This document shows positions 33,052 to 64,000 of a stretch of 64,000 bases of DNA, piece after piece (within the stretch, counting starts at the first letter, position 1; every line of letters starts with the position of its first letter). Source of the stretch: Eledone cirrhosa (Eukaryota); NCBI GenBank assembly GCA_964016885.1, contig OZ024740.1, forward strand, positions 210,614,001-210,678,000, given 5' to 3'. The position numbers and the translations under genes are program-made. Below the pieces are notes generated by a model. That model saw nothing but the letters and a program-made list of their open reading frames with translations, had not been told where the DNA came from and ran no database searches.

Positions 33052-33123
<72 letters not shown>

Positions 33124-33322
33124 GCACAACACGCTCCTTGAGTTGAGGGTTGTTCTATCGACGGGGTATTAAACGACCCATTTGTGGCGCCTCCCCTCTA
33201 TTGGGGATTTCGATTGTTGAAATTGTTTGTTTTTATATTTTTTACACGACTGTATGTAAAATCCCCGGCATGTCTTTGTATTGTCCCCTTTCTTGTTGCG
33301 CCCTTGTGGCTAATAAAGAAAT
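33124..33322 (+). mobile_element. Tx1-clade 3'UTR-only insertion (~200 bp)
   Basis: Near-identical to the 3'UTR at 48225-48420; flanked on both sides by (CTAT)n. Confidence 0.9.
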
Positions 33323-33354
33323 CTATCTATCTATCTATCTAGCTAGCTAGCTAG

Positions 33355-33392
<38 letters not shown>

Positions 33393-33469
33393 GACTATGT
33401 CTGTCATCTATCTGTCTGACTATGTCTGTCATCTATCTGTCTGACTACCTGTCTATCTGTCTATCTGTT

Positions 33470-35197: not shown

Positions 35198-35392
35198 ATA
35201 TCTACCTGTCTCTGTCTTTGATAGTAGACGTCTTTCATATCGGCTCTTCGATTTGGAATTTTTACTTGGAATATTTGAGAGTGCATTATTTAAATTGTTT
35301 TTTATTATTGACTCTAACCCCTAGTCTGGGACTGTAGACGTAGGGTAAATATATTTTCACCTCTTTTGGGGTGAAAAATATTTAATTCAAAA

Positions 35393-37149
35393 ATGTTTAT
35401 CGATATCGTTGAAAACGATATCGCCATATTGGAAGCTAACGCCACGCCTACCAAAAAAATAAGCGAGAAAGAGGGAACAACAATTCAAACTGTTGAACAG
35501 CCCCTCCTCTCCAATGAAAAAAAAAAGAATATTAATTCGAATGAAAACCTAAATTTTGAAGAAAAAAATAACACCACAAATAATGAAACCAACAACATTA
35601 CAACAACAAGCAACAAAGACAACAAAATTTGTTTTGCCCAAACGGTCAGGAAAGCTATCGAATACAAGCCCATAGATATTACTAACGCTAAGCAAAACTT
35701 GCTAGATGCCAGAAAATACGTATCTTTTGGGGAGGATGGTTCTTTTACGATCAACTCCCCAGAAGAAGTTCGTTAACAGGTATATAGGAATACCATAACC
35801 TACAGGACTATATCCAACGCAACAAGAAAGCCAGCTCAATTGACAGAAAGTCAAATTGAGCTGGTTCTGAAAGACATTAAAAAGGACATACTCTTTATTG
35901 AAAGAGGAAAGCTGTATGCCAGCATTATGGTCCGAATGAAGGACGAAATGCTGGCTCAAAAATGTTCGGTGGCACCTATAGTGTCACCACAATACACCTT
36001 CTTCCCCACATATAAAGGAAGAAGAACACAAAGAATAAGAATGTGGAGCCCAACTCCAGAAGTAAACATCTGGTCCGTCCTAACAGGATTTACGGACCTA
36101 GAAAAGGACATCCTTATTTCAGCAGGGGAGTCCACCAGTGGACTGTTCGGGGGGAAAAGTCTGGAGGTTCTCTTACAGATGACACCTGAGAGAATCGCCG
36201 GAATACCCGACCGAGTCCTACTGGATGGGCGAACCTTCATAAATATTACGGTGGAAGGCAGGAGACCCTCATGTTACCACTGCGCTGGCAGAGGTCACAT
36301 GAGGACGGCCTGCCCTCTACTAACAACAAAAAAACCACTGCTACAAACACCACAACAACAACAAAAACAACCAGCACCACCACCACAAAAACAACAAAAT
36401 ACACTACCATCACCACCACAACGACAACAAAAACCAACAACACCACCTCCACCACCACCACCACCACAACAACAACATCAACAACAGCTCAAGAAAACAA
36501 CCCAAAACACGGTCCCACCCAGCCCCTCCCCACAGAACACAAATACAAAAACACACACAGTTCATACACAACCCGGAAATATACCCCTCCCCTCCAATAC
36601 GGAAGAGGAGCTCATATCGTCGGAAGACGAGGGGGCTCCCTTCCAAAAAGTGAAAAGAAAAAAACGTACACACACCACATAAACAAAAATAACCCCACCT
36701 GACAACACAACACAAACAACAAAACGCAAACTCACGCAAGAACAACAAGCAAAAACAAACACAACAACACAAAAACTCTACACATACATAAACAAAAACA
36801 ATAAAAACTTAACGGAAAAAATAGAAAACAACCCTTCGGTACAAACCGAAGGGCCGAATTTTGCAACGGCAATGGGACTCCCTAACCTGAAAATGGTGAA
36901 AGTCCCACTTTCAAAACTTTGAAAAACATTTACCCTGAGGACGTGGGGGCCACCCTGCACCAGGCCACTCAACCGCGTCCTCCTGAAAGGTTTTCCCCTC
37001 CCCTCCTCAAACACCCACACAACTCCAAACACCCCAACCCCTCCACACACTAATACCCCCACACCACCACAAACCACCACCCACCCAACAACCCCTCCAC
37101 CAGCCCCATGGAAACTGAGCGGCCCGAACCCCGGGACGCAGAGAGGTAA
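35393..37149 (+). pseudogene. LINE ORF1 (gag-like CCHC zinc knuckle; P/Q/T-rich C-terminus), interrupted by stops
   Basis: ORFs 35393 and 35840 are in the same frame, separated by one TAA. CYHCAGRGHMRTAC knuckle. Terminal METERPEPRDAER* matches the ORF1 tail of copy 1. Confidence 0.85.
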
Positions 37150-37172
37150 GTGCCTCTTTCTTTGCCACCAAC

Positions 37173-40100
37173 ATGGCTGTGTTAAGAGTGGGTTGTCTAA
37201 ATGCGCGTGGCCTGGGCTCACCTTGGAAGCAAGCTAAACTTCTAAATGACCTCAGGTCACAATGTATAAATGTGATGGTTATTTGCGAGGCCCGGATCAG
37301 CAGCGTGCGACAGCTAGCCCCCACCTTTGATGACTTTGAGATGCACGCATCTCTCTGTCAGCCCGGAGGTGGGGGTGGGGTTGTCGTTCTGCTGCAAAAA
37401 CATCTGGGTCTCGCTACACAGACGGTACACTTGGACCCGGAGGGTCGACTCGTGGTTCTGGACCTTGACAATGGTGAAGGCGAAGCTTTTAGGCTTGTCG
37501 CCGTATACGCCCCTTTTGGGGCAATGCGGTCGGACTTCTTCCATCGTCTGGAGACTTTTCTAGGGACGTCCCGCTCCTTGCTTTTAGTGGGGGACTGGAA
37601 TGGTATCCTAGATGCACGTTTGGACTATGTAGGGGCATGTCCCGATAGAGGGGTGTGTAACAGCCTTAAGGGGTTAATCGGCCGATTTGACCTGGCCGAT
37701 AGATACCGACTAGATTTTCCGACTGTGCCAACCTGGACTTGGTCAAATAACAGTGGTCAATCTAGATCGTACCTAGATAGGTTCTTAGTTAGAATTAAGG
37801 ATAGGGACATTTTAAGTTGTCCAGAAATGCTCATGGTGGGCTATTTAGACCACAAGTTAGTGACCTGCGTAGTCCACCTTGATAGAACGCATAGGCAGGG
37901 ACCCGGTTACTGGAAGCTCAACTTGTCCTTACCGGCAAGTAGAGCTTACAGGGACCGGATTAGAACCTTAGTTAAGGAGCGGTTGACTGGCACCATCGTC
38001 AACAGCAGGTGGTGGGGCTCTCTAAAAAGAGAGATTAGAGTAGTTTCAATAGGAGTTAGTAAGGAGTTAGCCTCAGATAGAAATAGGAAGGAAAGGGAGT
38101 TGGTAGTTAATGTTGAAGAGGCAATGAGAAGCGGCAACGTGGCCAGAGTGCAAGCGTCGAGAATGGTCTTTAACCAGTTCTTCGACGCGAAACACGAAGG
38201 CTGCGTTGTCCGAAGAAAAATACGTGCTCTGGGAAACGAGAGGACCAAAGCTGTTAGCTGGGCCCGCGTGACAAAAGCGAAAAGTGGGATTAAATCCACT
38301 ATCCGGTCTTTGCGAGACCAGGATGGACGGTTGATCCTTGAACCTAAGCAAATGTGCGAGGCCTTTCAAAGGCACTTTGCCCGATTGTTCGGGAGGGGCG
38401 GGGAGCCGGTTGGGGATGTGGAATTCGGTCCATACCTCGACGGCCTGGCGCGTCTTTCGGACAAGGAGGCGAGGTCCTGCGACGGGCCGATCTCAGCTGC
38501 TGAAATAGGGGACGTGCTGAGCCTATGCGGCAAACGCAAATCTCCAGGGTTCGATGGTCTGCCCTACGAACTATATATTAATATGCCGGACTTGTTCCCC
38601 GATCTCCTCGAGGCGGTCTACTGCAACTGGCAACAGAACGGGAGAATTCCCTGTTCTGTGACCAAGGGCGTAGTCTCGCTAGTGAGGAAGGACGAGAACA
38701 AGGGGGATGGCATTAGTAATTTTAGGCCCATAACTCTGCTAAATGCAGAGTTAAAAATTTTGGCCAAGGTGTTAGCGAAGAGGTTGGCGCTTGTCGTGGG
38801 GGCCCTGGTGGGAGATGCGCAGACATGCGCTATCCCGTCCAGGTCCATCCACGACAACCTCCACCTCATGCGATACATCATAGAGAGGGTTGGGAACGAA
38901 CCCGGCTTTGGTGGGGCCCTGATAAATTTAGATCAGTCTAAAGCGTTCGATAGGGTGGACCATGGTTACCTGGATGCGGTGCTAGCGGCGGCTGGGTTCG
39001 GACCCGTTTTCAGGGGCTGGATCACTGCCATGCACAGCAGCCGCATCTGCTCTAGAGTCAAGGTGAACGGCTACCTTTCGGAGCCGTTCGAAATCACCCG
39101 CTCCATCCGACAGGGGTGCCCTCTCTCCTCCCTTCTGTATGTATTGGCCCTCGAGCCACTACTGCGGAAATTAGAGTTGTTGCAGGGCATCCCTTTGGAA
39201 CCGGGATTGCGCAAAGCGGTGTCGGCCTATGCCGATGACGTAACAGTAATGGCGTCGACCACCTCGGAAATTGAGGCAAACGGCACCTTACTGGAGGAGT
39301 ACGAAAGGTTGACAGGGGCTAAGTTGAACCGGGACAAGTCAGTCGCTTTGCAACTCGGTGAGTGGAGGGGAAAAGCGATGTCGTGCGACGGTATCGTCGG
39401 ACGGAGGGCCCGGTGAAGTTGCTTGGGGTCTGGTTCGGACCGGACCTCCAGGTGGAGAAAAACTGGGGTGAGGTGACGAATAGGGTGTTTGCACTGATTC
39501 AGAAGTGGGCCGAGTGCAAACTATCCCTGAAAGGTCGGGCGGAGGTGGCGAACGCTTACATAGCGTCCGTCATCTATTACCGCTTGACTGTCGTGCCTTG
39601 CCCGGGTGAGATCCTCGCCAAAATGGAGCGCGCCCTCTTTTATTTCCTTTGGAAGAAGAGGTCTCCTCTGGTGAGGAGATCCATCTGCTGTCAACACCCT
39701 TTGAAAGGAGGGCTGGGGATGCCGTGGCTAAAAATGCGTAAACACGCATTGAGGCTAAGGCACCTCCAGGTATTCCTCACCGGTCAACCGGTGTGGGCCC
39801 CGTTTGTGAGGCGAGCCTTCCCGAGGCTCGTCTCGCTCACCGAGCTGCAGTCCTGGGTGAAGCCAAGACCGAGAAAACTGGGCGACTGGCACACCGAGTG
39901 TGCCCAGGCGCTCACGGCTCTCTGGCAGGCGCACCCGGCTATCGACGGAGACTCCACCTCGTCATTCTATAGAGGGCTGGTGGTTAGCAGGTGCGACGAC
40001 GCCCTAGGAGAAACCCTAGGCATGGAGGAGGACGAACTGGCCAGTCTATTCGGTAGGACTTTCGGCCCGGGACCTATGGACAACTTCCAGAAGTCCTTGG

Positions 40101-40608
40101 CCTGGCAGTGCTACTGAGGGGCTCTGCCCGTTCGGGATAAACTCTACAGACACGGGCGCCCGGGTAGGGACCCCTTGAAAAAGATCTGTCCCAGATGCGT
40201 GCGCGACGAGGAAACCATCGCGCACGCATTGGTGCACTGCCCGGGCGTTGCCGATCTGTGGGGCTATGTCGAACAACTGCTGTCACGGGTGGGACCAATT
40301 AGGTTGACCACCGAGTCCATTGTAACGATCAAGCCGCCCCCCCCCCCCCCTTCAAAAATGAAGGAGAGGCGATGTTTCTGTGTGTAATAGCCATGGTAAA
40401 AGAGGTTATATGGTAGACGCGTCTGAAAGGGCTGAGGTCGGACACCTTTCTTTCCGGCCAACAACTGGTCCTTTTCTTCCGATACCATTTCGGAAGAAGG
40501 ATCAGGATGGAGAGAGAGGTGCTGCACCCCAGCCAGTTTTATGAAAGGTGGGTGAAAGTGGCGAGAATGGCCCGTGTGAATGGGTCTTCTCTCTACCTCA
40601 GCCTGTAG
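37173..40608 (+). pseudogene. LINE ORF2 (APE-RT-ZnF), open for ~740 aa and then frameshifted/stopped
   Basis: 747-aa ORF plus 251-aa and shorter continuation ORFs, highly similar to ORF2 of copy 1. Confidence 0.93.
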
Positions 40609-40822
40609 GTGGAAAATGAAGAAGGGAGCACCCTCTCTTTGTGCTCCCGTGGAGAAGGGTCGCACATTTTTTCGGGGGTGTGTGTGACCCCAAAACGATC
40701 CCTCCCTATTGAGGACCTTCTTGTTACTATTTTGTTTCTTATATTTTTCTTACTCGATTTTTATGTAAACTCCCCCCACCCATGTCCCTTTCTTTTGTGC
40801 CCTAGTGGCAAATAAACAGAAA

Positions 40823-41596
40823 TGTGTCTGTCTGACTACGTCTGTCATCTATCTGTCTGTCTGTCTGACTATGTCTGTCATCTATCTGTCTGTCTGTCTA
40901 TCTGTCTGTCTATCTGTCTGTCTGTCTGACTACCTGTCTATCTGTCTATCTGTCTATCTATCTATCTATCTATCTGTCTGTCTGTCTGACTATGTCTGTC
41001 ATCTATCTGTCTGTCTGTCTATCTGTCTGTCTGTCTGACTACCTGTCTATCTGTCTATCTGTCTATCTATCTATCTGTCTGTCTGTCTGACTATGTCTGT
41101 CATCTATCTGTCTGTCTTTCTATCTGTCTGTCTGTCTATCTGTCTGTCTGTCTGACTACCTGTCTATCTGTCTATCTGTCTGTCTGTCTGACTGACTAAG
41201 TCTGTCATCTATCTGTCTGTCTGTCTATCTGTCTGTCTGTCTATCTGTCTGTCTGACTATGTCTGTCATCTATCCGTCTGTCTGTCTATCTGTCTGTTTA
41301 TCTGTCTGTCTGTCTGACTACCTGTCTATCTGTCTATCTATCTGTCTGTCTATCTGTCTGTTTATCTGTCTGTCTGTCTGACTACCTGTCTATCTGTCTA
41401 TCTGTCTATCTATCTGTCTGTCTATCTGTCTGTTTGTCTATCTGTCTGTCTGTCTGACTACCTGTCTATCTGTCTATCTGTCTGTCTGTCTATCTGTCTG
41501 TCTGTCTGACTACCTGCCTATCTGTCTATCTATCTATCTGTCTGTCTGTCTATCTGTCTGACTATGTCTGTCAATCTGTCTGTATATCTGTCTGTC
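40823..41596. repeat. Complex (TCTG/TCTA)n, i.e. GACA/GATA-type, satellite with recurring CTGACTATGTCTGTCATCTAT and CTGACTACCTGTCTAT motifs
   Basis: Directly visible. The same motifs occur in the spacers at ~32940-33120, 33325-33468 and 48423-48475. Confidence 0.97.
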
Positions 41597-44296
41597 GTGC
41601 CAGTAGACAATACAAGCTATATACACATTTCGGCAGAAGGGGGCAAGTCACATCGTTTTAAATGCGCAAGCACATCGCATTTAAAGGCCTCCTGTCCCCT
41701 CTTTCGACCCCCCCCCCAAAAAAAGTACTTTTACCAACACCAACTCCAAAACCACAACAACAACAACAACACAAAACAAGCAAGCACACAAAAACAAACA
41801 ACTGCTCAACCACAAACAACAGAAAAAAACACAAACAATTCCCTTGAAAAACACAGTACCACCCCATCCCACTCCATCCAACACTACCACAATCACACAC
41901 ACAAACACACCATCACCACACAACATACCCATCCCACACGCCCCTGATGACGATTCATCGCCAGATGAGGCTACTTCTCCATCCCCAAATGAAGATGAAG
42001 GAGAGCCTCGGAAATAAAAACAAAACAAAAAAAGAGACACCGCAAAGCCACAAAAACACCAATCACTAACATGAACACACAACCACCAACACAAACAACA
42101 ACACAAACACCACCCCAAACACAAATGTCCACCATAAAAAGAAAACTACAAAATGAACAACAAACCAAAACAACACAACAACAAAAGTACACATACATTA
42201 ACACAAACAACAAAAACCTAATGGAGGTCATCTCCCAAGACCCCAAAGTAGAAATTGAGGGGAAAACTTTTATCAAGGCAGACTCTCAACCACACCTAAA
42301 ACTGATAAGGGTTTCGATAGAAACCTATCAGAAATTAAAAGAACAATTTTCGCAGGACGTTGGCAACCCTTGTCAAAAGCCCATTAACCGCGTCCTATTA
42401 AAATGTTTCCCCACCCCACTCAACACCCGCACCAGCACCCAAATGGATATTGAACAACCCGATCTCCAGGAAACGAAAAGGTAAATGCATCTTTTCGTCC
42501 TTTTTCGCCAACTCTTCTCCACCAACATGGCTGATTTACAAGTTGGAAGTGTGAATGTGCGTGGCCTAGGGATGCCCAGGAAACAGGGCCAACTTTTAAA
42601 CGACCTTAGGTCACACGGTATGGATGTGATAGCCATCACCGAGTCCAGGATCCACAACAGGCAGCAACTAACCCCCACCTTCAATGACTTTGAGATCATG
42701 CTGTCAGCCAGGAGGCGGAGGGGGAGTGACTGTCATGTTTCGGAAAAACCTGGACGTTGAAGTACAGCAAGTACACTTGGACCCGGAGGGTAGACTGGTA
42801 GTCCTAGACGTGAACAGTGTTGGAGGTGGAGCCTTCAGACTGGTGGCCGTTTATACCCCAACTGGGCAATCGCGGTCAGACTTCTTTAAGCGTCTAGAGT
42901 CTTTTCTGGGAACGTCTAGCTCCTTGCTTTTAGTGGGGGACTGGAATGGTATCCTAGACGTACGATGGGACTATGTAGGATCATGTCCCAGTAGAGGGGG
43001 GTGCAACAGACTCAAAAATTTAATCGGCCAGTTCCAACTGGCTGATAGGTATCGACTAAATTTCCCGACTGCACCAGAGTGGACGTGGACAAATCTCAGC
43101 GAGACATCTAGATCATATTTAGACAGGTTATTTATTAGAGAGAGAGAGAGAGAAGAAGATGTTAAGCTGTCCACAAATGCACATGGTTGCCTATTCAGAC
43201 CACAAACTAGTCATCTGCATAGTCAACCGTGATAGAATACATAGACAAGGACCCGGATACTGGAAGCTGAACGTTTTCGCTACCGACACGTAAAGCCTAC
43301 AGTGAACGGATAAGTAGATTAGTTAAGCAACAATTGACGGGAGCCATCGTCAACAATAGATGGTGGTATTCCCTCAGGAAAGCAATTAGAATAGAGTCGA
43401 TAGACTTTAGCAGAGAGTTAGCCTTACAGAGAAACAAAACAGAAACGGAACTAGTAGCCAAGGTAGAGGAGGCGCTTAGGAGCGGCAACGTAGCTAGAGT
43501 GCTAGCAACGAGAACGGCACTGGACCAGTTCTTCGACGCGAAATACGAAGGCTGCGTGGTCAGAAGTAAATCACGTGCTCTAGTAAACGAGGGAGCGAAA
43601 GCTGTTAGCTGGGCCCGAGTGGTAGAGGAAAAATGTAGCAACAAGTCCACGCTTCGGTCTTTGAAATACTAAAACGGACGCGTGCTACTTGACCCCAAGC
43701 GGATATGCGCGGCCTTTCAGCGGAATTTTGCGCAACTGTTCGAGCAGAGTGGCGGTGCGTCGAACGGGGCAATGGACTTCGGTTCATACCTCGACGGCCT
43801 GTCGCGTCTCTCGAGCATGGACGCCGAGTTCTGCGAAAGACCGATCACAGCCACTGAGGTACGGGACGCTCTGGGCCGCTGCGGGAAACGCAAATCACCC
43901 GGTCTATATGGTCTACCCTATGAGTTTTACATAGGCATGCTGGACTTGTTCTCTGGCGTCCTCGAAGCCGTCTACTGCAACTGGCAGCAGAACGGGAGAA
44001 TTCACAGTTCTGCAGGCTGGGGCGTAGTAACGCTGATCAGGAAAGACGAAACAAGGGGGATGAACTAAGCAACTTTAGGCTCATAAGTCTGCTCAACACA
44101 GAGTTAAAGATTTTGGCCAAGGTGTTGGCAACAAGGTTGGCGCCTGTCGTTGAGAAACTGGTAGGGAATGCGCAAACGTGTGCAATCCCGACCAGGTCCA
44201 TACACGACAACCTCCACTTCATGCGATACATAATAGAGAGGGTGGGGTGTAAACCTGGCTTCGGTGGGGCTCTGATCAATTTAGATCAGTCTAAGG

Positions 44297-46724
44297 CAGC
44301 AGTTCCCAAACTTTTATAATAAATTCCACCTTAATGATATAGCAAGCAAAACAGTATGACCCCCCCCCCCCCCCTAAAAAAATTAAAATTTTTGATATAA
44401 TTTTTTTATGTAGAAATAATTTCGGCATCTCTTTTTATTTCAATGAAATCATTTTAAATTTATTATAAACCCTTTTTCAACAAAAAAACATTAAAACAAG
44501 AACATATTATTTAATTTCAAAGAACAAATTAATGTATTTCTGTAATTGTTTGTTTTCAACTAGTTTCTGGAATCTTGGAAGAATAGAGGTAAGAGCACAC
44601 ATCAAGTCATCTTCAACTGCCAATTTGTTTCTTGCCTTTGATTTGATTGCTAACATAGCAGAGAACCCGCTCTCACAAAGATAAGTAGATGAAAATGGCA
44701 GCAACACATGGATCGCCATGTCAGTTATTCTTGGGTTGGACACTTTCATAGAACACCAGAATTCATTCAATTCTTCTGTCTTAAACAAATTATTTGCTGT
44801 TGAGTCATTAATTAGTTCAAGGAATTCTTCTTGAGCGGCTTCTGGTACAACTTCCACATCACAAAGAAAGGAATTTCTTGTCAACTCAAGATTTTGTTGA
44901 CTTAGAACTGGGAAGTCCTCTGAAACTCATTCTCAAGTTGTGACAGATCGTCAGTTATTTCAAGTTCTGTGGTCATTGGGAGTTGCTCTGCATTTAGAAT
45001 AGATGTCATTTTTGGAAACATTATAACATTATCTGGGTGAACTCTTTGCTTGTATAATACTAATTTTCCTAGAAAAGCCCGGATATCATCTGTATGTGAC
45101 AGAATATTGCAATTTTTCCCTTGCAATTTTAAATTCAAACTATTGAGTATGTCGAAAATGTCAACAAGATAAGCAAGAAGAAGATCAAATTGATCATGTT
45201 GAAATTTTTCCAGAATATCTTGCTTCTTTTGCTCTTCAACAGACTTTTTCACCACATTGCTAAGCGAGAAAAACCTTTCCAAAAATTGACCAGCTGACAA
45301 CCAACGGACAGCTGTGTAGTAAAGATGAGTATGCTTTGTTCCCAGGTCATCACAAAGTTGTTTGAACAAACGAGTATTCAGAGCTGATGATTTGATAAAA
45401 TTTACAATTTTGACAATGTCTTTGAAGAAATTATTTAATTTTTGAGGCAATGATTTTGATGCAAGGGCTTCTTTGTGTATGAAGCAATGTACTTGTACTT
45501 GTGGTGCTTTAGCTTTTACCAGTGTTTGTAAACCAGACCTTGATCCAAGCATTGCTGGTGCTCCATCTGTTGTTATGCCTATGGGATGTTGCCAAAGAAT
45601 TCCATGCTTGTCAATAAATGTAGAAATTGATTCCATGACATCAACTGCTTTCGTTGTGCCCTCCAGCGAATGACAGTAAAGAAACTCTTCTTTCATATGA
45701 CCATTAAACAAATAGCGACAGAAGACTAGGAGTTGAGAACATGGAAACATCAGTTGATTCATCAAGCTGCAATGCAAACCATGGTGAATCCTTAATTTGC
45801 TCAACGATTTGTTCCTTCAAATCTTCCGATATATCATTTATCCTTCGTTTTATCGTGTTATTTGACAAGGATATATCATTTAACTTCTTTGAAGCACTTT
45901 CTCCAACAACAAGTTTAACCTTCTCTTTGGCACAAGGCAAAATCAGTTCCTCAGCAATCGTATGTGCCTTCTTTTGTTGAGCAATCAGATAAGCAACACG
46001 ATAGAAGCTTCAACAATAGTGGCCTTGGTCTCATGAATAGTACCACTTACATCAAGCTTTTGATTTTTTAAACCATCTGATTTCCTTTTAAAAAAAGATT
46101 CAACTTTTCCAAGTAGTTCAGGATGACATTTTGAAAGATGTAATTTGAGCTTAGAAGGCCTCATAGAGTCATTTCCCAGTACCTTGAAACAAGTTACACA
46201 TTGAGGCAAATCAATATTGTTCTTTTGCATGCAAACAAATCCCATTTGAAGATAGGAATCATCATACTTTCTTTTTTTTCTGTTTTTCTGACATTGAGAA
46301 ATTCACTAAAATAAATAAAAAAAAGTTTCTATATCCAGTTTTAAATGATAAATTTACTAAAATAAATAATGAAAAGTACTTCAAAATAGTCAAAGTAATT
46401 TTGTCAATGAGAAATTTACTAAAATAAATAATATATATCCTGTTATAAAAATAAGTTTCTTTACTAAGTTTACTTACTAAAACATAAATTGTTATATCCA
46501 GATTTAAATAATTATCAAGTGAAGTAAAATCATAATTAGAAAAGGTAGAAAGTTGATAAAAAGTTGAATATAAAAATTTGAAGCAAGAAAAAGAAAAAAT
46601 TGTTAGGAAACTACTCTTCTTTTTTATGTATGAAATTTTGTGATTTTTAGTTAATTCCCGTGGCTCCCCCAATAACTTGCTATGGCCCACTGGTGGGCCA
46701 TGGCCCTCTGGTTGGGAACCAATG
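44297..46724 (-). mobile_element. hAT DNA transposon, Buster/Charlie type (2428 bp)
   Basis: Imperfect TIRs CAGCAGTTCCCAAAC / CATTGGTTCCCAACC. Perfect 8-bp TSD GTCTAAGG (44289-44296 and 46725-46732) with central TA. Confidence 0.95.
44507..46294 (-). pseudogene. Frameshifted hAT transposase (ZBED5/SCAND3/Buster-like)
   Basis: BED finger PQCVTC...HLSKCH, FALQLDESTD, TTDGAPAMLG, HCFIHKEAL, VRWLS, PFSSTYLCESGFS. Confidence 0.92.
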
Positions 46725-48720
46725 GTCTAAGGCGTTCGATGGGGTTGAGCATCGATACTTGGAACCGGTTCTCAAGGTGGCCGGTTTCGGACCCGTCTTC
46801 AGAGGCTGGATCACCGCAATGCACACCAACTTCTGCTCTATGGTCAAGGTGAACGGCTACCTATCGGAGCCGTTCGCAATCACGCGTTCCATCCGACATG
46901 GATGTCCTCTCTCCTCCATTCTGTACGTACTGACTCTAGAGCTACTACTGCGGAAGTTGGAGCTGCTGCAGGGCATCCCGTTGGAACCGGGACTGCGGAA
47001 AGCGGCGTCGGCTTATCCCGACGACGGGACAGTAATGGTGTTGGAAATCGGGGCGATCGGCAACTTACTGCAGGAATACGAAAGGCTCACAGGAACAAAA
47101 CTGAACCCGGACAAGTCTGTCGGTTTGCAACTCGGAACGTGGAGAGGCAAACCGATGCCGTCCGACAGCGTCGTCGGACGCTGGACGGACGGACCGGTGA
47201 AATTGCTCGGGGTCTGGTTCGGTCCGGACCTCCAGGTGGAGAAAAACTGGAACGAGGTCACGGCCAAGGTATTTGCGCTCACCCAGAAGTGGGCAGAGTG
47301 CAAACTATCCTTGAAAGGTCGAGCGGAGGTGGCGAACACTTTTATAGCGTCCGCCATCTACTACCGCTTGACCGTCGCGCCTTGTATCTACAGGTATTTC
47401 TCACCGACCCCCAACCGGTGTGGGCACCGTTTGTGAGACAGGCCTTCCCGTAACTTGTCTTGCTGAAGGAGCTGCAGTCCTGGGTCAAGCGGAGACCGAA
47501 GATGAGCGCCTGGAACATTAAATGGTCTCAGGCGCTCACAGTTCTCTGTCAAACGAGCACGGCAATCAGTGGAAACTCCACTTCGACATTTTATAGAGGG
47601 TTAGTACGTCACAAGGGGGACGACGTGCTCGGAGAGACTCTAGGCATCGAAGACGACGAGTTAACCAGTCTGTTTGGTAGAACTTTCCGCCTGGGACCTA
47701 TGGACAACTTCCAGAGGTCCCTGGCCTGGCAGTGCTACCGCGGAGCTCTACCAGTTCGTGACAAGATCTACAGGCACGGCCGCCCCGACAGGGATCTTTC
47801 CAAGAGGACGTATCCAAAATGCGGTCAGGACAGTGAAACCGTCTTGCCCGCAATTGTACACTGCCGGGGCGTAACCGACCTGTGGAACTACGCAGAACCA
47901 CTGCTGTAGTAAGGATCAAACCGCCAACTTCTTTCAAAAACGAAAGAGAAGCGGTTTTCCTCTGTATAGTGACTATGGTGAAAGAGGTTATATGGTGGAT
48001 GAGATTGAGAGGACTGAGGACAGATGCCTTTCTCTCCGGACAACAACTCATTCCATTCTTTAGGTACCACTTTAGAAGGAGAATCAGAGTGGAGAGAGAG
48101 GCACTGCACCCCAGTAAATTTACTGAAAGGTGGGTGAATGTGGCAAAAATGGCCCGAGTGATTGGCCTTCTCTGTATATAAACCTGTAGCTTGAAGAAGA
48201 GAGCAAAGGGAAGAAAGGAGCACTTGCACAACACGCTCTTGAAGTTGAGGGTTGTTCTATCTACGGGGTATTAAACAACCCATTTGTGGCGCCTCCCCCT
48301 ATTGGGGATTTCGATTGTTATAATTGTTTGTTTCATATTTTTACACGATTGTATGTAAAATCCCCGGCATGTGTCCTTGTTTTGTCCCCTTTTCTTGTGC
48401 GCCCTTGTGGCTAATAAAGAAATATATCTATCTGTCTGTCTATCTATATGTCTGTCATCTATCTGACTAACTATTTATTTGCATATCTGTCTCTCACCTA
48501 TATGGAAAGATTCTCTGGATCCCATTTCTCCGTTTTACATACCATACACCACCCAACGTCTCCACCCATCCATAGTAGTTCAAACTCTTTCTCTTACTCT
48601 CCTCCCTCTTTCTTTATTTACTTCACTCTCTTTCATCTACAACATTCACACTCACCAACTTCGATTACTCTTTTTTTCTGCTCTCCCAACCCTCTCTATT
48701 TTCCCCACTTTACTTATCTT

Positions 48721-54489: not shown

Positions 54490-55678
54490 TATGTATGTAA
54501 AATGTAAAAAGAATTAAGAACACAATCGGTACAGTATATAGAAGGAATATATTAGTTTAACACTTGAAATAGCAGGAAGAGGGTCTTAATGTTTCGGACG
54601 CTAGTCCTTCATCAGAAGAAAGAATGAGAAATGAGAAAGATTGAAGGGACGGGCAGGGCAGAATTAAAAAAATGTCTTTAGATAAAAATAACAGGTCCAT
54701 TCATGTTGCCATCTCTTGGAACTATGTTGATGCTGGCGTTTTGTGTATAATATATTTCTTTAGAAATATATTATACAGAAGGAACTGCGTACTTTAGAAA
54801 CAGAAGGAACTGCGTACCAGGATGTCGCGGAGACTACGGAAGCGCTTAAAGCGGTGATAGGTGGATTAGGAAAAAAGCGAGAAGTGACAGGGTCAGAAGA
54901 GAGGGTGGGGAAGGAACGGAGAATATGTCACCGGAGGTAGGGGGATGGGGTGGTAGGTGAGAGGGAAAGGAAGGCGGGTGTTGGGAGAGCGTTGGTGAGG
55001 TAAGAGGGCTGTGATATGGTCGGTTTTACGGTCGCGGGTGAGAGCAGCTTGGATGGGGGGGGGGGGGGTCCGCGCTGGATTAAGCGGGAGGCCATCTAAA
55101 AGGAATGGGTTTCGAAACCGTGGTCATGCCTACAGAGCCGACGAAGACGGAGGGATTGGGAGTAGGGTATGGAGAGTTTGGTGTGGGTTGGATGGGAGGA
55201 GCTGAAGTCGAGGTAAGAATGGGAGTCAGTAGGTTTATAGAAGATGGGAGTAGAGAGGGTGTGGTGAGTTTGATCGATAGATAGAGAGATATCTAGAAAA
55301 GGGACAGAAGAATCTGTATGGGAGGTGGTGAAGGTGAGAGCAGGATAAAAAGATTGGACGAAAGAGAGAACGCAGTCGAGCTGTTAACGTGATAGAGAGG
55401 TGGCGCCGATACAGTAGTCGGTAATATACGTATAGCTCAGGGGTAGGTCCAGCATACTGGGAGAAGATCTGGGCTTCGACGTAGCCAACAAAAAAGTTGG
55501 CATAGTTTGGCCCATTCTCGTTCCCATAGCTACCACAGAGACCTGCTGATAGAACTCACCGGAAAAGGAAAATCCATTGAGGGTCATAACAAGCTCAGCT
55601 AGACGGAGAAGAGTAGTAGTGTTGGGGTAAGGGGTAGGGCGTTTGCCTAAAACGTGTTGGAGAGCGCGGAGGCCGTCA
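54490..55678 (-). mobile_element. Penelope-like element fragment (Neptune-like RT/thumb; endonuclease not visible) with a 3' hammerhead
   Basis: LLRLAELVMTLNGFSFSGEFYQQ...AMGTRMG, downstream FFPNPPITA..R..SLRDILVRS, and a hammerhead core near the 3' end. The clade assignment is from memory of PLE motifs. Confidence 0.82.
54583..54620 (-). ncRNA. Minimal type I hammerhead ribozyme motif (PLE-associated)
   Basis: UCUU-CUGAUGA-AGGAC-UAGC-GUCC-GAAAC-AUUA-AGA. The core and stem II are canonical; stem III appears mutated. Confidence 0.7.
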
Positions 55679-55689
55679 TATATATACAT

Positions 55690-57270
55690 CTGGAACTCCC
55701 TGACCTCAAAGGAGGATTATATAGAGATGATGCTCTCCTACTCATTAAGAACTTCAATGGTCAACAGTTGGAAAATCCTTCTTTTAAAATATCTTTTTAG
55801 ATGTGACTCTCGACCTTAACTCTGGCATATACGAACCCTTCCATAAATCTAATCATAAATTAAACTATGTTAATTGTTGGTCTAACTATCCTAGGACTAT
55901 CACTAGCTCCATTGTTAAAAATGTATCCCTTAGGATCTCCAGATTGTCAGCCTCAGAATCCTCTTTTAACAAACACATGGACTACTGCAATGCTGGTCTA
56001 CTTAAGGCCGGTTATGGTGAACCACTAAAATTTCTTCCAGATACAACATGCGGGGGAAAATCCAACCACCCCAATGGAAAAACATCACAAGCATACCACA
56101 CAAAATTTGCAAACTTAAATACCAACGGCTGAAAGCCCCACAGTGGCGAGACAAATGATAATACTGCAAATAAGAAAACACAAAGGAGGCCCCGCACGAA
56201 ATCATACCTATGGTATAATCCCCCGCCCAAAGATCTGGTAACTACTAAGCTATCCTATCTCTTCTTTAATCTTATAGACGAACACTTGCCTCCTACACAC
56301 AAATTCCATAGAATACTAAATAGAGACACGATCCGACTATCCTATTCCATCACAGCTAACCCGGGCAACGTCGTCATGAAATTGAATAACAAACGCCTCC
56401 GCAGGTATGGCAATACCAACAGCCAACGGAAACCCGGACTTAATCTGAACCCTCAACAACACCCGCAGCCTCCAACACTGAGCAGACCGGCACCCGCAAA
56501 TACCAACGTCTCTTCCACTTTACCCGCATATCCAGAGCAACAACAAAATACCCGGAATAACATCCCCAGCACTGGAACCAGGGAAGAAACCACACACTAT
56601 ATACGGACAAACTGCAACTGTAGAAATCCCAGCATTTCTCCTTTATCGAGTAAATACTTATACAAAAATATCATTTACCAATGTGTGGTAAAATCTAAAC
56701 TGGGGATATTTAATTGTGTGGGTTCCACTTCGAATACTTTCAAGAAAAGATGGTATGTGCACACTCACACGTTTAAAAACCCGAGGTTAGCTAGATCTAC
56801 GGCCATGGCGAATGAGACATGAAACGCGCTAATATTGAATACACACTACAATGCACCGTTCTAAAATGTTCCCGTCCATACTGGAATGAAAGTCGCCCCT
56901 GTAAACTTATGTTTGGCGGAGGAAATTGAAATAGCGACCGGAAAGTACCTTCTAAATTCCCGGCACGATAGGATATTTAATTGCAAACACAAGGTTCTAA
57001 AAACCTTCGCTAAATACAAACTGGACTAGAACTAAATTCGATCCCTAATACCTAGGTTTTACTATATCCTATTTGGTACAATTCCTGTGGCATTTGAACT
57101 TTTCACACCCAATGGATTCAGTAATAATCAAAACAATCTCATTTTATTAATTCCTTTCCTTCTTACACACTCTAACCTACTCTTAATCTCTACCCTCTCT
57201 TTTTCTGTCTCTCTCTTTATACCTTCTCTATCCCCATAAATGGTAAACGTCAAAACCTTCATATATACAT
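55690..57270 (+). mobile_element. Penelope-like element fragment (RT C-half plus C-terminal GIY-YIG endonuclease; resembles the Hydra-type group), degenerate
   Basis: GLYRDDAL, WYNPP, HLPPTHKFHRILNRDTIRLSYS, CNCRNPSI(S/C)PL, IIYQC...VGST..FKKRW..H, and CKL/CLAEE..I....LLNSR....CKHK. Ends at (TA)n. Confidence 0.82.
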
Positions 57271-57271
57271 T

Positions 57272-57334
<63 letters not shown>

Positions 57335-57337
<3 letters not shown>

Positions 57338-60300
57338 TATAGACATAGAATATTCGAAAATATTCTGTATGTTTATAATAAACATTTTGAAGACCTAATC
57401 GCTATAGAATAGAATACGTCACGTATTACAATTAGATTCTCGATAAAAGCAAGGGAAGTAATCTACGCGTTTCATTCTTGTTAGAAATCTTCAGGACTAC
57501 ATATCCAGTGCTTTTATCGAGAATGACACAGCTAGAGACTTATAGAATACTTAGCTGTGTACAGGAACTGGTTTGAAAGAGCGGTTGCCGGTCCGGCAGA
57601 AATTAGAAATTGGAATAAATGCTCTGAAATAGCGATATATATGTGAATATAGACATAGAATATTCGAAAATATTCTGTATGTTTATAATAAACATTTTGA
57701 AGACCTAATCGCTATAGAATAGAATACGTCACGTATTACAATTAGATTCTCGATAAAAGCAAGGGAAGTAATCTACGCGTTTCATTCTTGTTAGAAATCT
57801 TCAGGACTACATATCCAGTGCTTTTATCGAGAATGACACAGCTAGAGACTTATAGAATACTTAGCTGTGTACAGGAACTGGTTTGAAAGAGCGGTTGCCG
57901 GTCCGGCAGAAATTAGAAATTGGAATAAATGCTCTGAAATAGCGATATATATGTGAATATAGACATAGAATATTCGAAAATATTCTGTATGTTTATAATA
58001 AACATTTTGAAGACCTAATCGCTATAGAATAGAATACGTCACGTATTACAATTAGATTCTCGATAAAAGCAAGGGAAGTAATCTACGCGTTTCATTCTTG
58101 TTAGAAATCTTCAGGACTACATATCCAGTGCTTTTATCGAGAATGACACAGCTAGAGACTTATAGAATACTTAGCTGTGTACAGGAACTGGTTTGAAAGA
58201 GCGGTTGCCGGTCCGGCAGAAATTAGAAATTGGAATAAATGCTCTGAAATAGCGAAACATACAGAATATTTTCGAATATTCTATGTCTATATTCACATAT
58301 ATATCGCTATTTCAGAGCATTTATTCCAATTTCTAATTTCTGCCGGACCGGCAACCGCTCTTTCAAACCAGTTCCTGTACACAGCTAAGTATTCTATAAG
58401 TCTCTAGCTGTGTCATTCTCGATAAAAGCACTGGATATGTAGTCCTGAAGATTTCTAACAAGAATGAAACGCGTAGATTACTTCCCTTGCTTTTATCGAG
58501 AATCTAATTGTAATACGTGACGTATTCTATTCTATAGCGATTAGGTCTTCAAAATGTTTATTATAAACATACAGAATATTTTCGAATATTCTATGTCTAT
58601 ATTCACATATATATCGCTATTTCAGAGCATTTATTCCAATTTCTAATTTCTGCCGGACCGGCAACCGCTCTTTCAAACCAGTTCCTGTACACAGCTAAGT
58701 ATTCTATAAGTCTCTAGCTGTGTCATTCTCGATAAAAGCACTGGATATGTAGTCCTGAAGATTTCTAACAAGAATGAAACGCGTAGATTACTTCCCTTGC
58801 TTTTATCGAGAATCTATTTGTAATACGTGACGTATTCTATTCTATAGCGATTAGGTCTTCAAAATGTTTATTATAAACATACAGAATATTTTCGAATATT
58901 CTATGTCTATATTCACATATATATCGCTATTTCAGAGCATTTATTCCAATTTCTAATTTCTGCCGGACCGGCAACCGCTCTTTCAAACCAGTTCCTGTAC
59001 ACAGCTAAGTATTCTATAAGTCTCTAGCTGTGTCATTCTCGATAAAAGCACTGGATATGTAGTCCTGAAGATTTCTAACAAGAATGAAACGCGTAGATTA
59101 CTTCCCTTGCTTTTATCGAGAATCTAATTGTAATACGTGACGTATTCTATTCTATAGCGATTAGGTCTTCAAAATGTTTATTATAAACATACAGAATATT
59201 TTCGAATATTCTATGTCTATATTCACATATATATCGCTATTTCAGAGCATTTATTCCAATTTCTAATTTCTGCCGGACCGGCAACCGCTCTTTCAAACCA
59301 GTTCCTGTACACAGCTAAGTATTCTATAAGTCTCTAGCTGTGTCATTCTCGATAAAAGCACTGGATATGTAGTCCTGAAGATTTCTAACAAGAATGAAAC
59401 GCGTAGATTACTTCCCTTGCTTTTATCGAGAATCTAATTGTAATACGTGACGTATTCTATTCTATAGCGATTAGGTCTTCAAAATGTTTATTATAAACAT
59501 ACAGAATATTTTCGAATATTCTATGTCTATATTCACATATATATCGCTATTTCAGAGCATTTATTCCAATTTCTAATTTCTGCCGGACCGGCAACCGCTC
59601 TTTCAAACCAGTTCCTGTACACAGCTAAGTATTCTATAAGTCTCTAGCTGTGTCATTCTCGATAAAAGCACTGGATATGTAGTCCTGAAGATTTCTAACA
59701 AGAATGAAACGCGTAGATTACTTCCCTTGCTTTTATCGAGAATCTAATTGTAATACGTGACGTATTCTATTCTATAGCGATTAGGTCTTCAAAATGTTTA
59801 TTATAAACATACAGAATATTTTCGAATATTCTATGTCTATATTCACATATATATCGCTATTTCAGAGCATTTATTCCAATTTCTAATTTCTGCCGGACCG
59901 GCAACCGCTCTTTCAAACCAGTTCCTGTACACAGCTAAGTATTCTATAAGTCTCTAGCTGTGTCATTCTCGATAAAAGCACTGGATATGTAGTCCTGAAG
60001 ATTTCTAACAAGAATGAAACGCGTAGATTACTTCCCTTGCTTTTATCGAGAATCTAATTGTAATACGTGACGTATTCTATTCTATAGCGATTAGGTCTTC
60101 AAAATGTTTATTATAAACATACAGAATATTTTCGAATATTCTATGTCTATATTCACATATATATCGCTATTTCAGAGCATTTATTCCAATTTCTAATTTC
60201 TGCCGGACCGGCAACCGCTCTTTCAAACCAGTTCCTGTACACAGCTAAGTATTCTATAAGTCTCTAGCTGTGTCATTCTCGATAAAAGCACTGGATATGT

Positions 60301-60494
60301 AGTCCTGAAGATTTCTAACAAGAATGAAACGCGTAGATTACTTCCCTTGCTTTTATCGAGAATCTAATTGTAATACGTGACGTATTCTATTCTATAGCGA
60401 TTAGGTCTTCAAAATGTTTATTATAAACATACAGAATATTTTCGAATATTCTATGTCTATATTCACATATATATCGCTATTTCAGAGCATTTAT

Positions 60495-60500
<6 letters not shown>
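57335..60500. repeat. Retrozyme-like array A: near-identical 310-bp units, ~3 in one orientation (57335-58255) and ~7.2 inverted (58255-60500)
   Basis: Exact 310-bp period, inversion junction at 58255, (TA)n on both flanks, one hammerhead per unit. Confidence 0.95.
58415..58503 (+). ncRNA. Type I hammerhead ribozyme of array A (7 copies on +, predicted cleavage after 58475+310n; 3 copies on -, first at 57458-57500)
   Basis: GUAGUC-CUGAAGA-UUUC[UAACAA]GAAU-GAAAC-GC-GUA^GAUUAC. Stem I is GUAGUC/GAUUAC, extended by a perfect 16-bp AUUCUCGAUAAAAGCA/UGCUUUUAUCGAGAAU helix. Stem III is the palindrome ACGCGU. Confidence 0.85.
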
Positions 60501-60532
<32 letters not shown>

Positions 60533-61177
60533 GTCAAAATCATAATTTCCACTGTGAAACCATAATATCTAGAATTAAGTTAGATTCTCTTAGAGGCTGA
60601 TGGCAAATTCTATTGTCCACGCGGAATGTAAGGGTAGTAGTAAAGCCCATTGAGAGACAAACTCTGCCACTACCACTAGGTTTCGGTCAACCGCCACTGG
60701 CAGGACGGCTAGCAGCAAACTATAGCCGTCTCATATTACAGACCTGGATGGGGTGATTGTTTCGTTGGGGTAAGGGGGGACCTGCCTAGGCGAATTTCGT
60801 ATAGTTTTGGGGTGGTGGATGGTCAACTTCCTCCGGACTTGCGCCTGCGCAAACCGGTGGGGGTGAATTGGGACTCACAAGGGAACGGACGAAGGACTCA
60901 AGAGCACCTGCTTTGTCTGTTTCCTTGTCGATTCAATTTGCATTACCTCAGGAACATAACCTTATTGTGTAAAAAGCTGTCTGATGATGTCACAGCACTG
61001 AGTACACCGAAGAGGGTCGCCACTGTCGCCATTGAAATATGTATCACAGCCTTATCATTAAAGCACTTTAACATCTGAAACTACTTTGCATTTTCTTATT
61101 CTAAATATACTCCGTCACTCCTACGTGAAAAAAGTACGTTGAGTGCTCGAATCGAATTGCAACAAAGTTAACCTTAA

Positions 61178-61250
<73 letters not shown>

Positions 61251-61256
<6 letters not shown>

Positions 61257-62145
61257 GCATTTTTAAGACCGTGAGCTATTGTTTTTTAGAGTAGTGACAA
61301 ATTCACTTACTTTGATCTCAGCAAACAGTGGAGATAAGCCGACAAGACCTTGTTTCGCTTTTGTTGAAGCTTATCAAGGCTAACTACTCCCACCTGTCTA
61401 CCGAGATCACTGATGTTATATTCTTATAGAATTCTAGTAAATAATCAGGAGCTGATTATACAGAGCGGTTGTTGGTCAGGCAGAAATTAAAAATTAGAAT
61501 TGGAGCTCTGAAATAGCAATATATATATGGATGTATATATAATGTATTTTGCAATACACTTTATGCTTAATTAAAAGCATTTTGAAGACCGTAAGCTATT
61601 GTTTTTTAGAGTAGTGACAAATTCACTCACTTTGATCTCAGCAAACAGGGGAGATAAGCCGACAAGGCCTTGTTTCGCTGAGATCAAAGTAAGTGAATTT
61701 GTCACTACTCTAAAAAACAATAGCTTACGGTCTTCAAAATGCTTTTAATTAAGCATAAAGTGTATTGCAAAATACATTATATATACATCCATATATATAT
61801 TGCTATTTCAGAGCTCCAATTCTAATTTTTAATTTCTGCCTGACCAACAACCGCTCTGTATAATCAGCTCCTGATTATTTACTAGAATTCTATAAGAATA
61901 TAACATCAGTGATCTCGGTAGACAGGTGGGAGTAGTTAGCCTTGATAAGCTTCAACAAAAGCGAAACAAAGCCTTGTCGGCTTATCTCCCCTGTTTGCTG
62001 AGATCAAAGTAAGTGAATTTGTCACTACTCTAAAAAACAATAGCTTACGGTCTTAAAAATGCTTTTAATTAAGCATAAAGTGTATTACAAAATACATTAT
62101 ATATACATCCATATATATATTGCTATTTCAGAGCTCCAATTCTAA

Positions 62146-62152
<7 letters not shown>
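61251..62152. repeat. Retrozyme-like array B: 320-bp units, ~1.3 units in one orientation and ~1.5 inverted
   Basis: TTAAAAGCAT recurs at 61251 and 61571. Inversion at GCT 61677-61679. (TA)n on both flanks. Confidence 0.92.
61911..62005 (+). ncRNA. Type I hammerhead ribozyme of array B, U3-A8 core variant (antisense copy at ~61314-61408)
   Basis: AGCC-UUGAUAA-GCUU[CAACAA]AAGC-GAAA-CAA(G/A)GCCUUG-UC^GGCU. Outer 16-bp helix GAUCUCGGUAGACAGG/CCUGUUUGCUGAGAUC contains three G-U pairs. Confidence 0.82.
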
Positions 62153-62182
<30 letters not shown>

Positions 62183-62188
<6 letters not shown>

Positions 62189-64000
62189 TATAAGTATTAA
62201 TAAAATAGATGTTCTTTTGATCAATTACATTTTATTATACATATTTCGGATGTACAACAATACGTCCTCATCAGACAAAATATAATGATACATGACATAC
62301 CCTGAGATGTTAAATGTTTAAGATTTAATCAAGAAAATCTTATTTATGAGAAAATGCGAAAACGTAATAAATTCATTAGAGAATGCGTGAGTAATAAAAA
62401 AAAACGTTGCATACTGTAACTGTTCTAAAAATGTTAAAGTGTATGATACTACGATATACCTAGGAAAACGTCTCATGAATCGTAACAGCCAGTGATAGCC
62501 ACTGGGAAAGGATTTATAAAGAGGGAAAAATAAAGTGTGTGTGTGTGGGGGGGGGGGGGTCGAAAGTTAAACGGTTAGATTTGAAAATATTTAATTTATA
62601 ATATTAGGGTGAACACTCCAGATTTCAGGATTATTTGCTGGTTATTTATATATTATTTTTATAAATTCGATAACTGTGTTATCATTTCTAAACTTCTGAA
62701 TTTTGAGAGTAACATTTAAAGGATTTAGCTGGCACATAAAGAATGAAATATTATACTGTTGATTATTTACCTAAATTTAAACTTTAACAAAGATACCAAC
62801 ATATTAGGTATGTAAAGCTTTTGAAGTACTTATTGTTATAAATATTTAAACTATTATGTATATAGGTATATATTAATGAGCCATTATGTTTAAGGTAAAT
62901 AATAACGACGAAGATAAAAATAAAATAAGATAATATATTGAAGGATATTAAGGATAAATATATACATATGTATAACTGGGTGTAAATGCACTAATTCTTC
63001 AACCAAGATATCAACATATTATTAGATATAGGGATGTATATATATAGATATATATTAGGTATTATTAGTGTAGGTAAATGATAACAGTTATAATCTTATC
63101 AACGTGTCACATTTAAATACATATATATATACATATAAAAAAACAACAATGAGTGCATGGATAATACAGAGTTCAAAATAATGTCTATAATAATTTTTAG
63201 TTTGGATATTTTCTCTATATTTGAATCATATATATAGAAATGTGGTAGGTATATTTAAAAATATTAAAAAATATATAAAATATAATATATAACTACATAC
63301 ATATTATAATACATTATATTATAAATAAATAAGAGATCGAAAGTACAGCGAAAAATTCACATTTATATATAAGTTTGAATCCGTCTCAAAAGTTAGATTT
63401 TATAGTGCAGTAAATATATTTAAAAGAAATATATGCTATATTATACTATAAATAATAGATCGAAAACTCATTAAAAATTTAGAGTTATAGATAAGTTTCA
63501 TAAAAATTTATGGATTGGGTATTAAACTAAAATTTAAAAGAGATCACAAATGTATTAAAAATTCAGTTAAATAAATTCCATAAATATGTAAGGATTAGGT
63601 ATTATCTAAATTATAATCATAGATAAAAATAAGGAGATAAAGAAATGATGGTATTGATCAAAGTTAACAAATAATGTTGTGTGTATCAATGTTTAGGCAT
63701 GTTAATTGAAATATTGTCATTCATTCTAGCGTTGTTTCTTCTATAGATAAATATAAAATAAAGCAATATTAAAGGCCATTAATGTTTTTTACTGTTGATT
63801 ATATATTCCTGGTAAGCGAGTTGTTATTGGTTTTGTGTAATTGTTTCTTTCTTTCTCGTTTTATGTGAGGCTAAAAAAGTAGACGTAGCTTTATGGAGGC
63901 AACTAGAGAATAATTCACTTTTTCTGTTAATTAGGGCCTCATAATTATTAATAATCAACAGGGTCTCCATTGTACAGAGCGGGCAGTTATTTGATATACT
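62183..64000 (-). mobile_element. 3' end of a further Penelope-like element (C-terminus of GIY-YIG region plus a long AT-rich 3' region ending in a hammerhead and (TA)n)
   Basis: Minus-strand translation of ~63870-64000 gives NNCPLCTMETLLII...LINRKSELFSSCLHK (one frameshift), the same motif pattern as the C-terminus at ~56900-57000. Confidence 0.65.
62223..62286 (-). ncRNA. Type I hammerhead motif near the 3' end of the third PLE
   Basis: AUUAUAUUUUGU-CUGAUGA-GGACGUA[UUGUUG]UACAUCC-GAAA-UAUGUAUA-AUAAAAUGUAAU, giving a 12-bp stem I and a 7-bp stem II with one mismatch. Confidence 0.72.

Follow-up and report, generated by a model that had tools for sequence, protein, structure and literature searches.

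Architecture of the 320-bp locus and its hammerheads

The stretch of DNA analysed here, hereafter the window, comprises 64,000 nt of Eledone cirrhosa contig OZ024740.1. Repeat and self-alignment analysis of the window resolved positions 61252-62152 into copies of a unit with a period of 320 bp, laid out not as a plain head-to-tail tandem but as two divergent arms joined at their 5' sides (Table 1). The arms overlap by 3 nt at the inversion junction (61677-61679) and are mirror duplicates, with 98% identity over 396 nt. The monomer has a GC content of 34.4%, below 50%, and the ORF scan returned no ORF of at least 60 aa in 61252-62152, so that the unit is non-coding. On both sides the flanks are pure (TA)n, in which a target-site duplication would be indistinct from the tract itself. 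When the neighbouring 310-bp array is included, all four arm ends stop at an AT adjoining (TA)n, at four different positions of the unit, and none of them lies at the predicted cleavage site.

The outer copies of both arms (61264 and 62055) share a letter seldom met in the family (about 2% of the reads in run X12, described below), with the common letter in the inner copies. Possible sources of this pattern are mixed templates, conversion between the arms and polishing of the assembly. The two arms differ from each other at three other sites, all of which are common family polymorphisms.

Near-perfect inverted arms are a known assembly hazard, and the inverted structure might be ascribed to a fold-back read. 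Such an artefact is extremely improbable at this locus, given that the arms are unequal and have different flanks, that the same inverted-arm design is present three times in the window (at 18.6 kb, 58.3 kb and 61.7 kb), and that four X12 reads contain an opposite-strand joint at another position of the unit.

Table 1. Coordinates of the 320-bp locus, its hammerheads and the adjoining elements within the window
Feature	Position	Strand	Details
Arm A	61252-61679	-	about 1.3 units, leftward from 61679 to 61252; starts inside hammerhead, ends in (TA)n
Arm B	61677-62152	+	about 1.5 units, rightward from 61677 to 62152; ends in (TA)n
Complete type I hammerhead, arm A	61329-61393	-	U3 61377, A8 61372, C17 61341
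Complete type I hammerhead, arm B	61926-61990	+	U3 61942, A8 61947, stem II 61949-61962, stem III 61966-61977, C17 61978
Third hammerhead, 3' half only	61650-61679	-	C17 61661; core missing; perfect 12-nt palindromic stem III 61662-61673
Outer helix (17 bp) closing the hammerhead domain	61910-62006	+	61910-61926 pairs with 61990-62006; 3 G-U
320-nt monomer, predicted cleavage site to next	61341-61660	-	
Left target flank, (TA)n tract	61179-61251		
Right target flank, (TA)n tract	62152-62183		
Broken RT/GIY-YIG ORF of a Hydra-clade-type Penelope-like element	55693-56993	+	tblastn E 2e-30 to P0001; 3' end of element enters (TA)n at 57261
Sister 310-bp retrozyme array	57325-60500		core CUGAAGA, C3-G8; divergent arms of 3.0 and 7.2 units, (TA)n on both sides
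Fragment between the two arrays	60532-61178	+	Penelope-type minimal hammerhead at 60981
Second Hydra-type Penelope-like element, 3' end	62184-64000	-	AT-rich tail, canonical hammerhead at 62274, end in (TA)n

A relaxed hammerhead descriptor applied to the whole window located the core UUGAUAA at 61942-61948 (+) and 61377-61371 (-), as the first-pass annotation had reported for both complete copies. The core is followed by stem II (4 bp with G10.1-C11.1 and a 6-nt loop), GAAA, a 4-bp stem III, GUC and stem I. When any Watson-Crick 3-8 pair is accepted, all positions of the type I core are canonical except U3-A8, UUGAUAA standing in place of the literal CUGANGA. All stems had been described as intact together with GAAA and GUC; this holds for stem II, GAAA, stem III and GUC, but stem I, which forms the open end, consists of four pairs, a U-U at the fifth position and one further pair. 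The 12-nt palindrome described for stem III is the majority form in the reads, but at the locus it is perfect only in the truncated third hammerhead, with one substitution in each of the complete copies. Likewise, the two complete copies do exist, but because they are mirror duplicates of one insertion they count as one observation and are no proof of covariation by themselves, and the argument that C3U and G8A changed together, as drawn from these two copies, does not stand.

Among 20,000 dinucleotide shuffles of the unit only one gave a hammerhead, with any Watson-Crick 3-8 pair accepted and three stems of at least 4 bp required. As regards a possible tertiary contact of loop 1 with loop 2, loop 2 (6 nt) matches the consensus of the Rfam family HH9 as well as the 310-bp sister at five of six positions each, and stem I contains an internal loop but aligns poorly to HH9. 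The outer helix holds no A-C pair beside its G-U pairs, a count that is weak taken alone (about 1 in 8). HH9 matched the two copies with E values of 0.02 and 0.035 (22.6-23.4 bits against a gathering threshold of 52), and with 0.0009 when the query was a 141-nt stretch. The whole-window Rfam scan at the gathering threshold detected neither U3-A8 copy, in agreement with the earlier expectation that searches tied to CUGANGA would miss this core, and retrozyme censuses using canonical descriptors can thus miss the whole family. The HH9 score is not diagnostic, since the 310-bp sister with its canonical C3-G8 core also scores low (16.5 bits). Matches to miRNA families at the junctions were rejected as hairpin artefacts far under their Rfam thresholds.

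The U3-A8 core in sequencing reads and comparison with the sister family

Positions 3 and 8 form a Watson-Crick pair in the active hammerhead fold, C3-G8 in the canonical core. The section of Perreault et al. (2011, PMC3088659) on U3-A8 hammerheads gives them as active in vitro with several natural examples, which upholds the earlier statement that a compensated 3-8 swap retains activity. The natural hammerheads of that section have the compensated 3-8 pair found here, and the section does not tie them to a retrozyme family.

To place the locus in its family we used public sequencing runs, of which 14 with seven organism codes were listed and nine contain part of the unit; no RNA run was among those containing it, which is taken as evidence neither for nor against expression. 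Four DNA-type runs were analysed with reads placed at 80% likeness, giving 1544 records for X1, 3079 for X12, 36 for X4 and 2 for X5. These runs represent three organisms (A, B and C); the best run contains 0.59 of the words, compared with shares of 0.06-0.18 in runs X6-X9, which do not enter the analysis, and organism A may not be the species of the window. Variants are drawn from the best-supported 40 of 104 variant rows, the weakest of which reaches about 25% in its best run. Among these 40 rows there was no substitution at 61942 or 61947, with about 500 X12 reads across the core, and none at any other core position (61942-61948, 61963-61966 and 61977-61978), whereas variants do occur in stems, in loops and elsewhere in the unit. 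All ten differences between the locus and a 284-nt contig from organism C are assignable outside positions 3 and 8, two contigs from organism B cross the core unchanged as judged by matching depths, and loose read ends of X1 and X5 also carry U3-A8. From this we take U3 and A8 to be clearly predominant in each of the four runs, perhaps beside a minority class with C3 or G8.

These reads bear directly on the case that the first-pass annotation had set against its own proposal, namely a CUGAUGA family of which this locus is a decayed copy, with an accidental double change copied to both arms. Both changes are transitions, and the copies mirror each other as products of a single event, as such decay would have it, but the predominance of U3 and A8 in every one of the four runs, and also in contigs of organisms B and C with differences at other sites, largely refutes this explanation and leaves it highly improbable. 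Exact-pattern scans of metagenome and viral contigs gave no match, which carries little weight because animal genomes are not part of these collections.

The large number of different variants and read starts found in X1 and X12 marks the unit as multi-copy, and head-to-tail joints with the exact 320 period were found in 118 X12 reads from 21 starts as well as in X4, hence in organisms A and B. The G at 61970 that makes stem III a perfect palindrome is present in 308 of 501 X12 reads and 91% of the X1 depth, and loop 3 is variable. Several helix variants keep their pairs by per-site counts, including 61911 A (179/437) with 62005 T (327/580), 61917 A (333/426), 61921 A (40/414) and 61938 G (135/481). 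Pairs would be broken by 61951 A in stem II (136 of 515 X12 reads, 26%) and 62002 A (31/580), for neither of which a partner change is among the best 40 of 104 rows. A-to-I editing was rejected as the source of the variation, the X12 changes being symmetric (A>G 15, T>C 14, C>T 19, G>A 11).

The array at 57325-60500 provides a comparison with a C3-G8 core. End-to-end alignment of the 320-bp and 310-bp units gave 211 identical positions of 303 (70%), with a score of 254 against a maximum of 106 in 200 shuffles. The "second retrozyme family" of the earlier annotation is thus retained as a retrozyme-type unit, but as a sister of the 310-bp family, not as an independent one. Pairs were counted by coordinates anchored on the core and a shared motif, as the MAFFT alignment slips one column after stem III. 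Of 30 pairs compared, 27 form in both families and three fail in one; 12 change on both sides (the 3-8 pair, two in stem I, two in stem II and seven in the outer helix), four change on one side, all to or from G-U, and 11 are unchanged. Sliding the outer helix out of register as a control left 6-8 of its 17 pairs. This count compares two families only and is not a phylogenetic test; it supports conservation of the structure at the RNA level. Selection on RNA structure, which had been proposed from the double change in the two copies plus G-U content, draws instead on the 12 of 30 two-sided changes relative to the C3-G8 sister. The two families form a natural matched pair, 70% identical and side by side, in which one can ask how a selfish RNA exchanges a catalytic core pair and at what cost.

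The 310-bp sister includes seven perfect tandem units and has a U-U at the base of stem II. Its copies are 99.7-100% identical over about ten units, far more uniform than the 320-bp arms, which fits recent rolling-circle copying from one template. In segments shared with the 310-bp family (61780-61880 and 62044-62098), X1 depth is about 5-40 times that of the hammerhead and the reads carry 310-like letters. A larger set of families appears to share this middle segment, which contains (UA)n tracts and may act as a promoter or as a signal for RT binding.

Predicted folding and processing of the RNA

The circular monomer was predicted to fold at -79.7 kcal/mol, with a z-score of -5.4 on the ribozyme strand (100 shuffles) and -2.1 on the other. 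This asymmetry was rejected as proof of the functional strand because the 310-bp sister has the opposite one, its opposite strand folding better (-77.9 vs -67.8 kcal/mol). The same behaviour of the sister, together with a total of only three G-U pairs, leaves unsupported the earlier claim that G-U pairs fix the functional strand, which is fixed by the hammerhead itself.

In every monomer the active fold lies above the predicted minimum, by 3.1-7.2 kcal/mol. In a two-unit model the double hammerhead lies 2.8 kcal/mol above the minimum and 11.6 kcal/mol below two single hammerheads, and because of this predicted difference dimer cleavage would be the likelier route. In two circles made from arm A, the active fold costs 7.3 and 6.5 kcal/mol with U3 compared with 4.4 and 4.0 kcal/mol with C3-G8, an increase of about 2.5-3 kcal/mol in a model that leaves tertiary energies outside. 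With the majority loop, U3 is predicted to complete a perfect 6-bp helix in which the stem I/core strand pairs with the 5' half of stem III; copy B, whose loop letter is private or in the minority, shows no such lock (4.0 vs 3.6), and in the dimer the cost of U3 is 2.8 kcal/mol. A full lock arises from one of 256 possible palindromes, or four with G-U, as counted after the fact.

A tentative and in our estimate rather unlikely interpretation is that the change from C3 to U was kept as a switch, whereby the monomer would be locked off, the 12-bp inter-unit palindrome would free the core in multimers, and A8 would restore the 3-8 pair. If this were true, a core substitution would act as a monomer-off/multimer-on control and would answer, for the 320-bp family, how animal retrozyme circles avoid re-cleavage. 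The variability of loop 3 in the reads speaks against such a switch, as do the unlocked copy B and the cost of U3 in the dimer.

The predicted misfolding of monomers can also be read as a sign of a ribozyme that is now slow or dead, in an RNA that was shaped as a ribozyme but spreads passively as a satellite or cargo of Penelope-like machinery. In the available part of the study by Li, Clavereau and Pollet (2026, 10.64898/2026.07.22.740005), cleavage was found in only one of nine predicted retrozyme dimers from Xenopus, with eight that did not cleave, and activity of the 320-bp unit is for this reason not assured. The stem II variant 61951 A in a quarter of the X12 reads and the variable loop 3 are in line with such a loss, but the core is invariant among the best 40 of 104 variant rows and most helix variants there keep pairing, so that we regard a slow or dead ribozyme as an improbable state of the family.

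The locus itself is a different matter from the family. With one complete hammerhead per arm, it fails the rule of two consecutive complete hammerheads by which Li et al. call a locus "active", and monomer release by two complete hammerheads in cis is therefore excluded. Read-through RNA of the locus is predicted to form a hairpin of about 384 bp across the junction. The locus is probably a dead end with one complete ribozyme per arm and a hairpin transcript, and would more likely serve as a source of double-stranded RNA than as a master copy.

Neighbouring elements, proposed mobilisation and related systems

The interval 55693-64000 holds at least five elements, piled up at a single (TA)n site (a Hydra-type remnant, the 310-bp array, the solo fragment, the 320-bp array and a second Hydra-type end), and looks like a hot spot of repeated insertion. 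The best match of the left remnant, P0001, has RWK, DKT and CxCX5C, the defining motifs of the Hydra clade of Penelope-like elements; Pfam returned only a sub-threshold GIY-YIG for P0001 and no match for seven remnant ORFs of the window. In the right-hand element, an endonuclease C-terminus at 63890-64000 (-) matched with 39% over 36 aa (pairwise E 1e-6). The fragment at 60532-61178 is a probable solo pseudo-LTR. Neither the inverted layout targeted to (TA)n nor these Hydra-type remnants had been mentioned in the first-pass annotation.

According to the accessible text of Craig et al. (2021, PMC8557442), almost all Hydra-clade families target (TA)n for insertion, elements of this clade carry hammerheads near the 3' end, and Penelope-like insertions typically include an inverted 5'-truncated copy. 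Naiad elements also favour (TA)n. The divergent arms show just such an inverted 5'-truncated copy on the 5' side. The 320-bp unit thus resembles Hydra-clade elements in its (TA)n targeting, its inverted truncated copies and its hammerhead, but unlike them it encodes nothing, and it has no sequence similarity to the Penelope-like ends of the window, including those of Hydra type. Insertion pattern and neighbourhood point to the Hydra clade as mobiliser of the unit, a partner that is read from the footprint only because of this lack of similarity. At the level of the locus, the inverted (TA)n footprint between Hydra-type elements argues for mobilisation by Penelope-like elements and indicates which clade is the candidate.

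Taking the evidence together, we consider it likely, with a probability of roughly 0.7, that this multi-copy 320-base non-coding repeat with U3-A8 as a family trait is a non-LTR retrozyme whose multimers would self-cleave, mainly as double hammerheads, to 320-nt monomers that are predicted to circularise and were probably copied into (TA)n by the RT of a Hydra-clade Penelope-like element. Tandem copies would be transcribed, as are the retrozymes of coral, mussel and axolotl, and the RNA would be cleaved after GUC, in dimers by way of the palindromic stem III. Monomers may then be closed to circles by a host ligase, by analogy with other metazoan retrozymes (PMC7229834), and reverse-transcribed by a Penelope-like enzyme, again by analogy. 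Priming could start from both nicked (TA)n strands at AT sites within an RNA that is circular or multimeric, and the two cDNAs would meet at the 3-nt microhomology. Arm ends that lie at AT and never at the cleavage site fit internal priming of this kind.

The same footprint could be left by an autonomous Penelope-like element, with the unit as its pseudo-LTR and the locus as a 5'-truncated inverted insertion of that element, not as an independent retrozyme. Inversion and (TA)n targeting are hallmarks of Penelope-like elements, 2960 of the 3079 X12 reads fit only part of the unit, the first animal U3-A8 cores were seen in Penelope-type minimal hammerheads (PMC4209133, as far as its available text goes), and Xenopus retrozymes resemble pseudo-LTRs in the part of Li et al. 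at hand. We nonetheless judge a pseudo-LTR origin decidedly unlikely, more so than loss of ribozyme activity, given the head-to-tail joints of organisms A and B, which keep the 320 period exactly, the seven perfect tandem units of the 310-bp sister, the lack of any ORF of at least 60 aa in 61252-62152, the arm ends at four different unit positions and a stem II of the canonical 4 bp, in contrast to the minimal motifs with their long stem at 60981 and 62274.

As expected of a retrozyme, the unit combines at sequence level a head-to-tail length within 150-450 bp, one type I hammerhead, a non-coding sequence with GC below 50%, multiple copies and a self-paired monomer. In the sections of Cervera and de la Pena (2020, PMC7229834) available to us, metazoan non-LTR retrozymes likewise have tandem units of 150-450 bp with GC below 50% and one type I hammerhead per unit, a palindromic stem III for dimer cleavage and a strongly self-paired predicted circle. 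Axolotl offers a parallel there, its genome having a pair of sister families that differ a little in length (330 and 350 bp), of which one has U-U at the base of stem II as does the 310-bp sister. In contrast to the retrozymes of those sections, the 320-bp unit has U3-A8, a stem III of 4 bp instead of the usual 1-2 and an inverted pair in (TA)n; its monomer is predicted to occlude the core, which in most metazoan circles was predicted to stay free, and it is known from DNA alone.

The U3-A8 variant is already known in nature and defines no new class of element. About 1,300 Penelope-type motifs with U3-A8 were described in Schistosoma mansoni that a canonical descriptor had missed (Cervera and de la Pena 2014, PMC4209133, in the part available). 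These Cercyon Penelope-like elements share with the 320-bp unit the U3-A8 covariation, an animal host and a Penelope-like link, but their motifs are minimal, heterogeneous and mostly single, unlike the canonical-sized hammerhead of a tandem, non-coding unit with a C3-G8 sister beside it. Li et al. propose a Penelope-like origin and mobilisation for their retrozymes as well; in the available portion of that preprint the evidence is co-occurrence and pseudo-LTR similarity, as opposed to the insertion footprint of the 320-bp locus. In mostly open papers, leaving aside the supplements of PMC7229834 and of the Li et al. preprint, we found no report of a tandem retrozyme family with a U3-A8 core, and within the same literature none in which a retrozyme leaves an inverted footprint in (TA)n.

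Several further hammerheads and mobile elements were observed in the window. Penelope-type hammerheads at 17871 (+), 60981 (+) and 62274 (-) have in common a near-palindromic 8-nt stem III and a long stem II, and each lies about 200 nt or less from (TA)n. A third small inverted element (18620-18734) contains two CUGAUGA hammerheads (18693 + and 18686 -) and ends in (TA)n; its hammerhead is 68% identical to that of the 310-bp family over 79 nt and has a much longer stem III. Pieces of another RT at 55096-55716 (-), without a Pfam match, presumably belong to a different Penelope-type element, judging by their motifs. A LINE-type endonuclease/RT frame of 1153 aa occupies 24205-27666 (+), with several broken relatives in 29870-48270, and from their translations we take 3702-4226 and 44507-45816 to be pieces of mariner-like and hAT-like transposases. 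The tRNA-like sequence at 20178-20250 (+), scored at 36.8 bits by Rfam, is probably the head of a tRNA-derived SINE, and positions 1168-2413 hold a 47-bp minisatellite of 26 copies with 97% matches and G-runs.
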